This document shows positions 26,010-58,937 of a DNA stretch of 64,000 bases, piece by piece. The DNA lies in the NCBI RefSeq assembly GCF_003334405.1, contig NZ_QOWM01000007.1; one strand, 5' to 3'. Source of the stretch: Escherichia coli. GTDB taxonomy: Bacteria > Pseudomonadota > Gammaproteobacteria > Enterobacterales > Enterobacteriaceae. The translations under genes and the position numbers were made by a program. The notes under the pieces were generated by a model, which was not told the origin of the DNA, searched no databases, and was given only the letters and a program-made list of their open reading frames with translations. Within the stretch, counting starts at the first letter, position 1, and every line of letters starts with the position of its first letter.

Positions 26010-27413
26010 GTGTCACTTTCGCTTTGGCAGCAGTGTCTTGCCCGATTGCAGGATGAGTTACCAGCCACAGAATTCAGTATGTGGATACGCCCATTGCAGG
26101 CGGAACTGAGCGATAACACGCTGGCCCTGTACGCGCCAAACCGTTTTGTCCTCGATTGGGTACGGGACAAGTACCTTAATAATATCAATGGACTGCTAAC
26201 CAGTTTCTGCGGAGCGGATGCCCCACAGCTGCGTTTTGAAGTCGGCACCAAACCGGTGACGCAAACGCCACAAGCGGCAGTGACGAGCAACGTCGCGGCC
26301 CCTGCACAGGTGGCGCAAACGCAGCCGCAACGTGCTGCGCCTTCTACGCGCTCAGGTTGGGATAACGTCCCGGCCCCGGCAGAACCAACCTATCGTTCTA
26401 ACGTAAACGTCAAACACACGTTTGATAACTTCGTTGAAGGTAAATCTAACCAACTGGCGCGCGCGGCGGCTCGCCAGGTGGCGGATAACCCTGGCGGTGC
26501 CTATAACCCGTTGTTCCTTTATGGCGGCACGGGTCTGGGTAAAACTCACCTGCTGCATGCGGTGGGTAACGGCATTATGGCGCGCAAGCCGAATGCCAAA
26601 GTGGTTTATATGCACTCCGAGCGCTTTGTTCAGGACATGGTTAAAGCCCTGCAAAACAACGCGATCGAAGAGTTTAAACGCTACTACCGTTCCGTAGATG
26701 CACTGCTGATCGACGATATTCAGTTTTTTGCTAATAAAGAACGATCTCAGGAAGAGTTTTTCCACACCTTCAACGCCCTGCTGGAAGGTAATCAACAGAT
26801 CATTCTCACCTCGGATCGCTATCCGAAAGAGATCAACGGCGTTGAGGATCGTTTGAAATCCCGCTTCGGTTGGGGACTGACTGTGGCGATCGAACCGCCA
26901 GAGCTGGAAACCCGTGTGGCGATCCTGATGAAAAAGGCCGACGAAAACGACATTCGTTTGCCGGGCGAAGTGGCGTTCTTTATCGCCAAGCGTCTACGAT
27001 CTAACGTACGTGAGCTGGAAGGGGCGCTGAACCGCGTCATTGCCAATGCCAACTTTACCGGACGGGCGATCACCATCGACTTCGTGCGTGAGGCGCTGCG
27101 CGACTTGCTGGCATTGCAGGAAAAACTGGTCACCATCGACAATATTCAGAAGACGGTGGCGGAGTACTACAAGATCAAAGTCGCGGATCTCCTTTCCAAG
27201 CGTCGATCCCGCTCGGTGGCGCGTCCGCGCCAGATGGCGATGGCGCTGGCGAAAGAGCTGACTAACCACAGTCTGCCGGAGATTGGCGATGCGTTTGGTG
27301 GCCGTGACCACACGACGGTGCTTCATGCCTGCCGTAAGATCGAGCAGTTGCGTGAAGAGAGCCACGATATCAAAGAAGATTTTTCAAATTTAATCAGAAC
27401 ATTGTCATCGTAA
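26010..27413 (+). CDS. dnaA: Chromosomal replication initiator DnaA
   Basis: GTG at 26010 ([14 protein letters not shown]...) gives 467 aa; Walker [11 protein letters not shown]; track ORF from 25998 is a 5' extension. Confidence 0.96.
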
Positions 27414-32055: not shown

Positions 32056-32154
32056 GCCTGATGCGCTACGCTTATCAGGCCTACGAAAATCTTGCAATGT
32101 ATTGAATTTTCATGATTTTGTAGGCCGGATAAGGCGTTCACGCCGCATCCGGCA
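32056..32154. repeat. BIME: two REP palindromes in opposite orientation after gyrB
   Basis: gcctgatgcgctacgcttatcaggcctac (32056..32083) and taggccggataaggcgttcacgccgcatccggca (32121..32154). Confidence 0.7.
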
Positions 32155-54632: not shown

Positions 54633-55817
54633 TTAAACGGGCTGCCCCTGATGCGACATCCGCGTCGCCAGCGGCAGCCAGCACAGCACGATCAACAATC
54701 CCATTAAGGTCATCAACAACCCCAGGCTGCCCTGACCGGTTTGCGGCAACATCGCAGAGAGCGACGCCAGCACGCCGGAACCAATGTTTTGCAGACCGCC
54801 GACCAGCGCGCCAGCCGTGCCCGCCAGGAAGGGGAACGGCTCCATCGCGCCGCTGGTCGCCAGCGGAAACAGCATCCCGGCACCGAAAAAGAACAGCGCG
54901 GCGGGAACGAGCAGCGTCCAGACATTCATCACGCCAAACCAGTCGGGGATCCACATCAGCAAGCCAGCCAGCAGGCAGCAGATAACCGACTGCCACATTA
55001 ACGTGGAGAAGCGTTTATTGGGACGTCCGGCAAACCATGCGCCAAAAAACGCTGCCGGAATCGGCAGAATAAACAAAATACTGACCGTCATACTGCTCAG
55101 CCCTAACACCGCGCCCATCAGCACGCCGGAGCAGGCTTCAAAGGCGGCAATCCCGGCCAGACCGCCAATCAGCATCAGCAAATAACAGTTAAAACCGCTG
55201 TTACCGAAAAGCGTTTTATAACTGGTAAGCAGGCGCGTGCGCGGTGCATCGACCGGACGCGTTTCCGGCATCCAGCGGGCCATACTGAAGGTCACACCAG
55301 CACAAAGAACCAACAAAAAGAGATAACAGGCGCGCCAGTTCCACATCGTATCCAGCAGACCGCCGATTAGCGGTGCGAGCAACGGACTGACGAGAATCCC
55401 CATGTTTAACAGGCTGTTAGCATGGCGCAACTGTGTCCGTTCATATAAATCTCGCGGTAAAGTACGCGCCATTACGCCGCCAACGCCGGTGCCCATCCCC
55501 TGCATCGCGCTGGCGGCAATCAACACCGTCAAACTGGAGGTCGTGACCGCGACCAGCGTTGCCAGCATAAAAATGGACATTCCGACGAGGATCACCGGTC
55601 GGCGGCCCACGCGGTCGGAAATCGGGCCATAAAACAGCTGTGAGACACCGTAAGTCAGCAGATAAGCGCCCATTACGCTCTGCACCGCCCCTTCACGGAC
55701 GTTGAGATCGCGCGCCATATCGGCAATAGCTGGAATATAAATGGTTTGCGCCATCTGACCGACGGCCACGAGTAATACCAACATCAATAACAAATTGACG
55801 TTTCTTTGCCTTTTCAT
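54633..55817 (-). CDS. emrD: MFS multidrug efflux transporter EmrD
   Basis: ATG at 55817 (MKRQRNVNLLLMLVLL...) gives 394 aa. Confidence 0.93.
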   Translation of the reverse strand: MKRQRNVNLLLMLVLLVAVGQMAQTIYIPAIADMARDLNVREGAVQSVMGAYLLTYGVSQLFYGPISDRVGRRPVILVGMSIFMLATLVAVTTSSLTVLIAASAMQGMGTGVGGVMARTLPRDLYERTQLRHANSLLNMGILVSPLLAPLIGGLLDTMWNWRACYLFLLVLCAGVTFSMARWMPETRPVDAPRTRLLTSYKTLFGNSGFNCYLLMLIGGLAGIAAFEACSGVLMGAVLGLSSMTVSILFILPIPAAFFGAWFAGRPNKRFSTLMWQSVICCLLAGLLMWIPDWFGVMNVWTLLVPAALFFFGAGMLFPLATSGAMEPFPFLAGTAGALVGGLQNIGSGVLASLSAMLPQTGQGSLGLLMTLMGLLIVLCWLPLATRMSHQGQPV

Positions 55818-55991
55818 TATCACGGATGCTTTTATAAAAATAATTAGAATAAGTCACTACGCATTCCCATAAATGCGGGAGAGGAATCTATCACATTGAT
55901 GAATGTTAGCCAGATATACGCCAGGAATGGGGAATTGTTTAGCGGCAGAATATGTAAACAAAAGCGGCAATAAATGTTGCCGGGAGAGATG

Positions 55992-56029
55992 GTAGGGCGG
56001 ATAAGATGCGTCAGCATCGCATCCGACAC
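55992..56029. repeat. REP-like palindrome between emrD and tisB
   Basis: gtagggcggataagatgcgtcagcatcgcatccgacac. Confidence 0.5.
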
Positions 56030-56040
56030 CAACCCGCACG

Positions 56041-56074
56041 CTAAATATAAAAGGGGAGCGGTTTCCCGCTCCCC
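56041..56074 (-). terminator. Rho-independent terminator of tisAB
   Basis: Stem ggggagcgg / ccgctcccc, loop tttc; minus strand followed by ttttatattt. Confidence 0.75.
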
Positions 56075-56096
56075 TTTGGTGCGACTTGAATCTGAA

Positions 56097-56186
56097 TTAC
56101 TTCAGGTATTTCAGAACAGCATCAAGCAGTTGCAGTGCTGCAACAATGAGTTTGAGGATAAGAATGGCGATATCCACCAGGTTCAT
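56097..56186 (-). CDS. tisB: Type I toxin TisB (SOS-induced membrane peptide)
   Basis: 29-codon ORF read by hand: MNLVDIAILILKLIVAALQLLDAVLKYLK. Confidence 0.9.
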   Translation of the reverse strand: MNLVDIAILILKLIVAALQLLDAVLKYLK

Positions 56187-56296
56187 ACGCGTCTCCTGTG
56201 GTTCAGGAGCACTGCCAGCTGACGTACCTTTCCGCTGCCTGTTGCCAGCTGTTGTGCACGCGGTATCTCAAGGAGAAACGTTGTGCTTGTTGACAT
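56183..56296 (-). CDS. tisA: tisA upstream ORF of the tisAB transcript
   Basis: 37-codon ORF MSTSTTFLLEIPRAQQLATGSGKVRQLAVLLNHRRRV; stop overlaps tisB start (ATGA); start region overlaps the IstR-complementary sequence. Confidence 0.55.
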   Translation of the reverse strand: MSTSTTFLLEIPRAQQLATGSGKVRQLAVLLNHRRRV

Positions 56297-56420
56297 AACA
56301 CAGTGTGCTCACGCGGGGTTAAGGCGCTGACGGCACCACCCGTTTCAGCCAGGACTTAGTGCGCCGGGTAACGATGCGGCCCCCGCATAACACATTGCGT
56401 ACAGTGATATTATAGAAGTT

Positions 56421-56440
56421 TACTGTATAAATAAACAGTA
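56421..56440. promoter_or_regulatory. LexA box (SOS box)
   Basis: tactgtataaataaacagta, perfect CTGT-N8-ACAG palindrome between divergent tisAB and istR. Confidence 0.85.
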
Positions 56441-56546
56441 ATATTTGGACAAAACGCAAACTGTGATCGATACTCAACTATGCACTAAATACGTCAAAAT
56501 TCGTGCCGAAATTGCGCGTTCTGCGCGGAACACGTATACTTTCAGT

Positions 56547-56621
56547 GTTGACATAATACAGTGTGCTTTGCGGTTACCAGCCGCAGGCGACTGACGAAAC
56601 CTCGCTCCGGCGGGGTTTTTT
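56547..56621 (+). ncRNA. istR: IstR-1 antitoxin sRNA (IstR-2 would be a 5'-extended form starting near 56480)
   Basis: TATACT -10 at 56535..56540 with TTGCGC -35 at 17-bp spacing; 75-nt unit ending in hairpin cctcgc-uccg-gcgggg + U6; 5' end repeats 20/21 nt of 56289..56309. Confidence 0.75.
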
Positions 56622-56750
56622 GTTATCTGCAATTCAGTACAAAACGTGATCAACCCCTCAATTTTCCCTTGCTGAAAAATTTTCCATTGTCTCCCCTGTA
56701 AAGCTGTGCTTGTATAAATATTGTTAAACACAAAACCAACAAGGTCCCCA

Positions 56751-56849
56751 ATGACTACTTCCATGCTCAACGCAAAACTACTACCAACTGCGCCATCCGC
56801 CGCAGTGGTCGTCGTGCGTGTGGTGGTGGTCGTCGGCAATGCGCCGTAG
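56751..56849 (+). CDS. ivbL: ilvB operon leader peptide IvbL
   Basis: 32-codon ORF read by hand: MTTSMLNAKLLPTAPSAAVVVVRVVVVVGNAP. Confidence 0.9.
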   Translation: MTTSMLNAKLLPTAPSAAVVVVRVVVVVGNAP

Positions 56850-56873
56850 GGACTGGAACAACACACGATTCCA

Positions 56874-56907
56874 AAACCCCGCCGGCGCAAACCGGGCGGG
56901 GTTTTTC
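56874..56907 (+). terminator. ilvB attenuator terminator
   Basis: Stem ccccgccgg / ccgggcgggg (one bulge), loop cgcaaa, then T5; 47 bp before ilvB ATG. Confidence 0.8.
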
Positions 56908-56954
56908 GTTTAAGCACCTCCCGGAAAGTCGGCCCAGAAGAAAAGGACTGGAGC

Positions 56955-58643
56955 ATGGCAAGTTCGGGCACAACATCGACGCGTAAGCGCTTTACCGGCG
57001 CAGAATTTATCGTTCATTTCCTGGAACAGCAGGGCATTAAGATTGTGACAGGCATTCCGGGCGGTTCTATCCTGCCTGTTTACGATGCCTTAAGCCAAAG
57101 CACGCAAATCCGCCATATTCTGGCCCGTCATGAACAGGGCGCGGGCTTTATCGCTCAGGGAATGGCGCGCACCGACGGTAAACCGGCGGTCTGTATGGCC
57201 TGTAGCGGACCGGGTGCGACTAACCTGGTGACCGCCATTGCCGATGCGCGGCTGGACTCCATCCCGCTGATTTGCATCACTGGTCAGGTTCCCGCCTCGA
57301 TGATCGGCACCGACGCCTTCCAGGAAGTGGACACCTACGGCATCTCTATCCCCATCACCAAACACAACTATCTGGTCAGACATATCGAAGAACTCCCGCA
57401 GGTCATGAGCGATGCCTTCCGCATTGCGCAATCAGGCCGCCCAGGCCCGGTGTGGATAGACATTCCTAAGGATGTGCAAACGGCAGTTTTTGAGATTGAA
57501 ACACAGCCCGCTATGGCAGAAAAAGCCGCCGCCCCCGCCTTTAGCGAAGAAAGCATTCGTGACGCAGCGGCGATGATTAACGCTGCCAAACGCCCGGTGC
57601 TTTATCTGGGCGGCGGTGTGATCAATGCGCCCGCACGGGTGCGTGAACTGGCGGAGAAAGCGCAACTGCCTACCACCATGACTTTAATGGCGCTGGGCAT
57701 GTTGCCAAAAGCGCATCCGTTGTCGCTGGGTATGCTGGGGATGCACGGCGTGCGCAGCACCAACTATATTTTGCAGGAGGCGGATTTGTTGATAGTGCTC
57801 GGTGCGCGTTTTGATGACCGGGCGATTGGCAAAACCGAGCAGTTCTGTCCGAATGCCAAAATCATTCATGTCGATATCGACCGTGCAGAGCTGGGTAAAA
57901 TCAAGCAGCCGCACGTGGCGATTCAGGCGGATGTTGATGACGTGCTGGCGCAGTTGATCCCGCTGGTGGAAGCGCAACCGCGTGCAGAGTGGCACCAGTT
58001 GGTAGCGGATTTGCAGCGTGAGTTTCCGTGTCCAATCCCGAAAGCGTGCGATCCGTTAAGCCATTACGGCCTGATCAACGCCGTTGCCGCCTGTGTCGAT
58101 GACAATGCAATTATCACCACCGACGTTGGTCAGCATCAGATGTGGACCGCGCAAGCTTATCCGCTCAATCGCCCACGCCAGTGGCTGACCTCCGGTGGGC
58201 TGGGCACGATGGGTTTTGGCCTGCCTGCGGCGATTGGCGCTGCGCTGGCGAACCCGGATCGCAAAGTGTTGTGTTTCTCCGGCGACGGCAGCCTGATGAT
58301 GAATATTCAGGAGATGGCGACCGCCAGTGAAAATCAGCTGGATGTCAAAATCATTCTGATGAACAACGAAGCGCTGGGGCTGGTGCATCAGCAACAGAGT
58401 CTGTTCTACGAGCAAGGCGTTTTTGCCGCCACCTATCCGGGCAAAATCAACTTTATGCAGATTGCCGCCGGATTCGGCCTCGAAACCTGTGATTTGAATA
58501 ACGAAGCCGATCCGCAGGCTTCATTGCAGGAAATCATCAATCGCCCTGGCCCGGCGCTGATCCATGTGCGCATTGATGCCGAAGAAAAAGTTTACCCGAT
58601 GGTGCCGCCAGGTGCGGCGAATACTGAAATGGTGGGGGAATAA
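56955..58643 (+). CDS. ilvB: Acetolactate synthase I large subunit IlvB
   Basis: 562 aa ThDP enzyme; GDG-type ThDP motif region CFSGDGSLMMNIQE. Confidence 0.96.
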   Translation: MASSGTTSTRKRFTGAEFIVHFLEQQGIKIVTGIPGGSILPVYDALSQSTQIRHILARHEQGAGFIAQGMARTDGKPAVCMACSGPGATNLVTAIADARLDSIPLICITGQVPASMIGTDAFQEVDTYGISIPITKHNYLVRHIEELPQVMSDAFRIAQSGRPGPVWIDIPKDVQTAVFEIETQPAMAEKAAAPAFSEESIRDAAAMINAAKRPVLYLGGGVINAPARVRELAEKAQLPTTMTLMALGMLPKAHPLSLGMLGMHGVRSTNYILQEADLLIVLGARFDDRAIGKTEQFCPNAKIIHVDIDRAELGKIKQPHVAIQADVDDVLAQLIPLVEAQPRAEWHQLVADLQREFPCPIPKACDPLSHYGLINAVAACVDDNAIITTDVGQHQMWTAQAYPLNRPRQWLTSGGLGTMGFGLPAAIGAALANPDRKVLCFSGDGSLMMNIQEMATASENQLDVKIILMNNEALGLVHQQQSLFYEQGVFAATYPGKINFMQIAAGFGLETCDLNNEADPQASLQEIINRPGPALIHVRIDAEEKVYPMVPPGAANTEMVGE

Positions 58644-58646
58644 GCC

Positions 58647-58937
58647 ATGCAAAACACAACTCATGACAACGTAATTCTGGAGCTCACCGTTCGCAACCAT
58701 CCGGGCGTAATGACCCACGTTTGTGGCCTTTTTGCCCGCCGCGCTTTTAACGTTGAAGGCATTCTTTGTCTGCCGATTCAGGACAGCGACAAAAGCCATA
58801 TCTGGCTACTGGTCAATGACGACCAGCGTCTGGAGCAGATGATAAGCCAAATCGATAAGCTGGAAGATGTCGTGAAAGTGCAGCGTAATCAGTCCGATCC
58901 GACGATGTTTAACAAGATCGCGGTGTTTTTTCAGTAA
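58647..58937 (+). CDS. ilvN: Acetolactate synthase I small subunit IlvN
   Basis: 96 aa ACT-domain protein, 3 bp after ilvB. Confidence 0.95.

Follow-up and report, generated by a model that had tools for sequence, protein, structure and literature searches.

The DNA just upstream of ilvB in the window (the whole 64-kb stretch of DNA that was analysed; all positions refer to it, on the plus strand unless marked otherwise) is, with a probability that we put at about 97%, the E. coli ivbL leader, a ribosome-mediated (trp-type) transcription attenuator of ilvBN. A preliminary description of the sequence had read this element as a valine- and leucine-sensing attenuator of the same operon. That reading was upheld by the identity of the locus, by the presence of an exclusive antiterminator, by a shift of the folding balance with ribosome position, by conservation in 36 genomes as well as in Proteus penneri, and by published experiments. 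Attenuation of ilvBN is already known and has served as a textbook case from the early 1980s on; the E. coli ilvB leader and attenuator were reportedly described by Friden, Newman and Freundlich in 1982, by Hauser and Hatfield in 1983/1984, and by Hauser et al. in 1985 (a study cited in PMC11347164). The operon is counted among the classical attenuated operons (PMC1183508), and the ivbL attenuator is already in use as a valine and leucine biosensor (PMC11187965). The present finding adds no new knowledge; its interest is that a leader-peptide attenuator can be recognised correctly from raw sequence.

The identity of the locus was established by comparison with complete E. coli genomes. The 401 bases from 56600 to 57000 were present in 5419 of 5426 such genomes at an identity of at least 95%, and the identity was 100% among the matches listed. 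At these matches RefSeq annotates "ivbL: ilvB operon leader peptide IvbL" and "ilvB: acetolactate synthase large subunit", and the annotated neighbourhood (emrD, ysdE, tisB, ivbL, ilvB) matches the window. The ivbL-ilvBN leader and attenuator of E. coli K-12 is the same locus, with 100% identical DNA over 56600-57000, the same annotation, and the same 32-aa peptide. The regulated gene ilvB, annotated in RefSeq and encoding the large subunit of acetolactate synthase I, is an ORF of 562 aa at 56955-58643. Its start lies 105 nt past the ivbL stop and 48 nt past the T run of the attenuator, on the same strand. The second gene of the operon, an ORF of 96 aa at 58647-58937 that begins 4 nt after the ilvB stop, is presumably ilvN, the small regulatory subunit, a name that we assign from the established E. 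coli map.

The region around the promoter was less distinct. A candidate -10 hexamer of the ilvB promoter, TATAAA, was read at 56713-56718 with low confidence; in the alignment of leaders described below (A1), partial conservation of a TAAAT is seen at the 5' edge, and the consensus promoter scan flagged neither this hexamer nor any other ilvB promoter. Transcription would start some 25-30 nt before the ivbL ATG. The same scan found no promoter-like site between the T run and ilvB. A putative CRP half-site at 56645-56660 was rejected, with 3 mismatches and 195 matches of this kind in the window against 214 expected by chance. A search of 55800-57100 against Rfam 15 (E≤1) returned no leader or attenuator family, and the only matches on the hairpin were partial terminator-like ones to P6 and STnc310, located on the opposite strand and far below the gathering scores. 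The ivbL element (56715-56925) would escape annotation by a covariance-model scan. The spacer from the attenuator to the ilvB ATG (56908-56954, …CCCGGAAAGTCGGCCCAGAA.AAAAGGACTGGAGCATG) is well conserved within Enterobacteriaceae.

The ivbL leader ORF, for which RefSeq gives the name 'ilvB operon leader peptide IvbL', spans 56751-56849 and consists of 32 codons and a UAG stop. Its translation is MTTSMLNAKLLPTAPSAAVVVVRVVVVVGNAP, exactly the peptide that had been read by hand in the preliminary description, followed directly by UAG. A Shine-Dalgarno-like AAGG (56741-56744) lies 6 nt upstream of the ATG, and its AGG is kept in most of 36 aligned leaders. The regulatory valine run, VVVVRVVVVV, occupies codons 19-28 (56805-56834); the earlier count of nine Val in ten codons was correct (5 GUG and 4 GUC), as was the mention of Leu codons, three of which are found in the ORF. 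Two of these are adjacent CUA codons (codons 10 and 11; 56778-56783, hexamer CTACTA) and the third is a CUC at 56766-68. No Ile codon occurs in the translated ORF. When all six frames of the 64-kb window were searched for sites with at least 8 residues of the same amino acid in 10 codons, only the valine run and its own reverse complement were recovered, and the absence of any other such stretch in the window argues that the run is not a chance feature.

For comparison across species, a degenerate DNA pattern for VVVVRVVVVV was searched in one genome per species, which yielded 120 loci, a set biased towards close relatives by selection with this pattern. An ilvB start was found about 150 nt after the valine run in 36 of the 120 loci, all of them from Enterobacterales, with representatives of Escherichia, Citrobacter, Enterobacter, Kluyvera, Pluralibacter, Cedecea, Serratia, Yersinia, Dickeya, Pectobacterium, Brenneria, and Morganella. 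IlvB identity to the window ranged from 64% to 98% across these loci. A 37th case was identified in Proteus penneri (locus L093, 1-380, minus strand), where a complete ivbL-like leader (…AAVVVVRVVVVVGKAP) is followed by a terminator and the start of ilvB; it had been missed by the tblastn filter, the locus ending about 110 nt into ilvB. The layout thereby reaches a second genus of Morganellaceae. No ilvB was found within 2 kb of the other 84 pattern matches. Five of these matches (L094, L097, L043, L109, and L021, from Bacteroidota, cyanobacteria, and Acidobacteria) were considered as leaders and rejected, as they contain short open frames with neither a start codon nor a nearby ilvB; judged from their sequence, they look like off-frame reads of repetitive DNA.

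In the alignment of the 36 leaders (A1) the N-terminal half of the peptide, in both sequence and length, and the 5' UTR vary freely. The C/A-rich stretch of the 5' UTR at 56728-56742 (ACACAAAACCAACAA) is poorly conserved across genera. Invariant in all 36 are CTACTA (A1 columns 77-82), most of the valine run, GGC, CGCCGTA, the next GG, and the terminator stem. The nucleotide invariance of the CUA pair amid varying flanking codons suggests that this pair specifically is the leucine sensor. Every first and second codon position of the valine run is invariant, and so are several third positions. Altogether the third position is invariant in six leader codons (two GUC, one GUG, GGC, CCG, and GCG, the last in the 35 sequences that encode Ala at this site), and most other leader codons are represented by a single codon in at least 90% of sequences. 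Third positions of the valine run are far better conserved than those of ilvB: among 45 invariant V/A/G/P/T columns of ilvB in these genomes, not one was invariant at the third position, and the major allele had a mean frequency of 0.61. This result is not an artefact of the search, since the pattern left third positions free. It is this conservation of synonymous sites that is informative, and it points to selection for the RNA sequence, for particular codons, or for both.

Downstream of the ORF an intrinsic terminator (regions 3 and 4) is located at 56873-56906, with a stem formed by 56873-85 and 56892-56905 and a run of five T at 56902-06. The hairpin (56873-56905) had a folding energy of -21.1 kcal/mol (z = -3.06), and only 1 of 200 shuffled sequences was as stable. 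It is bulged and has a G+C-rich core; the perfect stem of 7 bp leaves a loop of 11 nt, and the longer stem is bulged. The GC-rich hairpin with five T announced in the preliminary description was thus borne out, and its spacing of 25 nt was slightly off: from the end of the ivbL stop (56849) to the G+C stem (from 56877) there are 27 nt, or 23 nt if the stem is taken to include its A-tract extension, which begins at 56873. The hairpin was absent from the output of a simple consensus promoter and terminator scan, which means that a simple terminator scanner misses the bulged ivbL hairpin. The stem was invariant in 36 of 36 aligned species, and terminator energies ranged from -19.6 to -24.6 kcal/mol over these species. 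A 3' end named 'ivbL_t', with weak termination strength, has been mapped by Term-seq (PMC9023263).

The alternative folds proposed as a check of the attenuator reading were computed, and a mutually exclusive antiterminator, whose absence would have refuted the reading according to the preliminary description, was found to form at 56840-56889. When the transcript ended at 56891, before the 3' arm of the terminator is made, the minimum-energy fold was this antiterminator (regions 2 and 3), which consists of three helices (56840-46/56883-89, 56849-51/56878-80, and 56854-59/56867-73). Its energy was -21.9 kcal/mol (z = -3.98), and none of 200 shuffles was as stable. The antiterminator and the 5' arm of the terminator have six bases in common, 56878-80 and 56883-85, which lie in the G+C core of that arm; because both structures use these bases, they cannot coexist. 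When each of the 36 species was folded independently, the minimum-energy structure was in every case the three-helix antiterminator, with energies of -17.8 to -22.5 kcal/mol. Helices 1 and 2 showed no variation in the 36 sequences, and the inner helix showed an exchange of AU to UA in 4 sequences, in addition to register shifts. These inner-helix changes were the only covariation seen in the antiterminator and terminator in A1, and they did not exceed the shuffle controls. As the bases of helices 1 and 2 and of the terminator are invariant, covariation says nothing for or against the main helices; the structural support for the two main antiterminator helices and for the terminator is conservation plus thermodynamics, without covariation.

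The effect of a translating ribosome was modelled by refolding the RNA with some 30 nt around each A-site codon masked as the ribosome footprint. In masked foldings of the transcript cut at 56891, the antiterminator formed with the ribosome at codons 6-26, was partly lost with the ribosome at Val27 (codon 27), and was mostly lost at Val28 (codon 28). With the ribosome at the UAG (footprint 56832-56861) the 5' strand of the antiterminator was masked and the structure was abolished. When the two structures were forced on the full leader, the energy of the antiterminator minus that of the terminator was +3.5 kcal/mol without a ribosome and fell to -1.2 kcal/mol when one occupied Val25 or Val26. 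These calculations, which concern only geometry and thermodynamics, support a model where the position of the ribosome would move the balance in the expected direction, the differences being small (1-3.5 kcal/mol).

When ribosome masks were applied to the full leader, folding at equilibrium kept the terminator in most states. Such folding cannot by itself tell the states apart, and truncated transcripts and energy differences between forced structures were therefore used. While region 4 was still unmade, the antiterminator was predicted at equilibrium even without a ribosome, and in a growing untranslated transcript it was transiently the minimum-energy fold until about 56900. Since the terminator is favoured at equilibrium in most full-leader states, the decision would have to be kinetic, as in the classical model, and we infer that the ribosome and RNA polymerase are kinetically coupled. 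Deletion of release factor RF3 has been reported to raise ribosome occupancy at stop codons and to increase attenuation at ivbL, which ends in UAG (PMC5373646); this effect of stop-codon occupancy agrees with the masking geometry at the UAG computed here.

In the mechanism that we propose, a ribosome would translate the 32-codon leader while RNA polymerase heads for the terminator. With charged tRNA-Val and tRNA-Leu plentiful, the ribosome would reach the UAG (56847-49) and cover about 56832-56861, including the antiterminator strand at 56840-51. Region 2 being covered, region 3 would pair with region 4, the terminator (56873-56906) would form, and transcription would end before ilvB. Scarcity of valine would stall the ribosome in the valine run (56805-34), and scarcity of leucine would stall it at the two CUA codons (56778-83). 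With either stall, region 2 would stay exposed and would pair with region 3 as soon as the latter emerges; the resulting antiterminator (56840-89) would sequester the G+C core of the 5' arm of the terminator and allow the polymerase to read through into ilvBN. The response to both amino acids in vivo is taken from the literature: an ivbL-gfp fusion in strain MG1655 was repressed by added valine and leucine in a dose-dependent manner, an ivbL mutant with its Leu codons replaced responded to valine alone, and no effect on the reporter was seen with six other amino acids whose codons occur in ivbL (PMC11187965).

Two further structures were predicted in the leader. A candidate protector pairing in the RNAalifold consensus joins region 1 (56813-56821, inside the valine run) to region 2 (56839-46). 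It formed a standard pair in 97.6% of the alignment cells with no double-sided changes, and the segment was no more stable than its shuffles (z = +0.42). In the minimum-energy fold of the E. coli sequence, region 2 is sequestered otherwise, by a local CGGC/GCCG hairpin together with long-range pairing. The proposed protector role of the 1:2 pairing is weakly supported by these predictions. RNAalifold also predicted a small hairpin, ACUGCG...CGCAGU, at 56787-56806, just 5' of the valine run. It contains one covarying pair (CG in 25 sequences and UA in 10), and its energy when folded alone was -8.2 kcal/mol (z = -1.72). We suggest that a stall at the Leu codons may be relayed downstream through this covarying hairpin.

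Three other explanations of the element were weighed. The short ORF might encode a small protein that acts as a peptide, with the hairpin serving as its constitutive terminator and without any sensing. In favour of this, the amino-acid sequence of the C-terminal half of the peptide, AAVVVVRVVVVVG.AP, is conserved in 36 species, but the N-terminal half is free to vary in sequence and length, and conservation reaches synonymous third positions as well as the untranslated stretch 56850-56906. The conserved synonymous positions and this untranslated stretch point to a constraint on the RNA. A peptide of this kind would also leave aside that ilvB follows 48 nt past the T run, on the same strand and with no promoter-like site between, and that read-through depended on valine and leucine in reporter work (PMC11187965). 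We consider this explanation extremely improbable. The valine run and the hairpin might also adjoin by chance. G+C-rich hairpins are common, but nothing else speaks for a coincidence. Against it stand the uniqueness of a homo-amino-acid run of such density in six frames of 64 kb, the persistence of the arrangement in the 36 aligned genomes from several genera of Enterobacterales and in Proteus, and the finding that terminator and antiterminator are both significantly more stable than shuffles. We give coincidence no credence at all.

Control of the operon could alternatively be mainly post-transcriptional, exerted by the GcvB sRNA on the C/A-rich 5' UTR and by RNase E cuts between ivbL and ilvB. 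GcvB has been reported to target ivbL, a site being predicted near the AUG in the 5' UTR, and RNase E sites have been reported in the ivbL-ilvB spacer (PMC11347164); the C/A-rich stretch at 56728-56742 is in keeping with such a site. However, conservation of the 5' UTR across genera is poor, and this explanation would leave the valine run, the invariant terminator and antiterminator, and the response to valine and leucine (PMC11187965) unexplained. We regard it as very improbable as the main mode of control, and see in it an added layer and no alternative to attenuation. A related proposal is that the terminated leader RNA, abundant and about 180 nt long, acts in trans, for example by binding GcvB with its C/A-rich 5' end and so serving as a decoy or sponge. 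We think such a role improbable, if somewhat less so than the explanations above; the support for it is the published interaction of GcvB with ivbL (PMC11347164) and the layout of the RNA only. The strict nucleotide conservation of the leader could in part stem from a function of this type. If true, a trans-acting leader would link valine and leucine status to the GcvB amino-acid regulon.

Attenuation of ilvBN by the ivbL leader has close counterparts in other operons. In E. coli trpL, the archetypal ribosome-mediated attenuator, as in ivbL, regulatory codons sit in a leader ORF, a 2:3 antiterminator competes with a 3:4 terminator hairpin, and a ribosome at the stop codon blocks region 2. They also both respond to perturbation of release factors (PMC5373646). 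However, trpL has two Trp codons in place of the nine Val and three Leu codons of ivbL, and ivbL senses more than one amino acid; the two leaders have no sequence homology, ivbL matches no Rfam leader family, and its 1:2 pairing is weak. The leader of ilvGMEDA (ilvL) and leuL of enterobacteria are, like ivbL, attenuators of branched-chain amino acid operons with runs of regulatory codons, and ilvL likewise senses more than one amino acid, as is established (PMC1183508). These leaders differ from ivbL in the operons controlled and in their RNA sequences, and also in codon content: Ile codons occur in ilvL together with Val and Leu codons but are absent from ivbL, and leuL has four Leu codons. 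In Corynebacterium and Mycobacterium, ilvBNC leader or upstream-ORF attenuators have been described in which a leader peptide precedes the acetolactate synthase genes and alternative hairpins are formed (PMC11857589, PMC10272879, PMC13236596). They share the logic of ivbL, but their sequence is unrelated and they belong to a different phylum; no actinobacterial match to the VVVVRVVVVV pattern was located within 2 kb upstream of an ilvB homologue.

Several other elements were observed in the window. Upstream of ivbL, the istR sRNA, the type I antitoxin of tisB, was identified by a full-length match to Rfam RF01400 (150 bits) at 56492-56621. Its terminator (56596-56619) was found by the simple scanner and stops only about 100 nt short of the candidate ilvB -10. 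The tisB toxin ORF (MNLVDIAILILKLIVAALQLLDAVLKYLK) is annotated in RefSeq and lies on the minus strand at 56097-56186. Between tisB and istR, CTGTATAAATAAACAG (56423-56438) is the single exact match in the window to the LexA-box-like pattern CTGT-N8-ACAG; 0.5 matches were expected, and one match is not beyond chance. The small ORF ysdE (24 aa, 55899-55973), also annotated in RefSeq, is situated between emrD and tisB. Rfam matches above the gathering score were further obtained for AsdA, the antisense RNA of dnaA mRNA (26520-26600, minus strand), for the ES036 sRNA (32077-32119, minus strand), and for a ROSE_2 RNA thermometer (42251-42323, plus strand).
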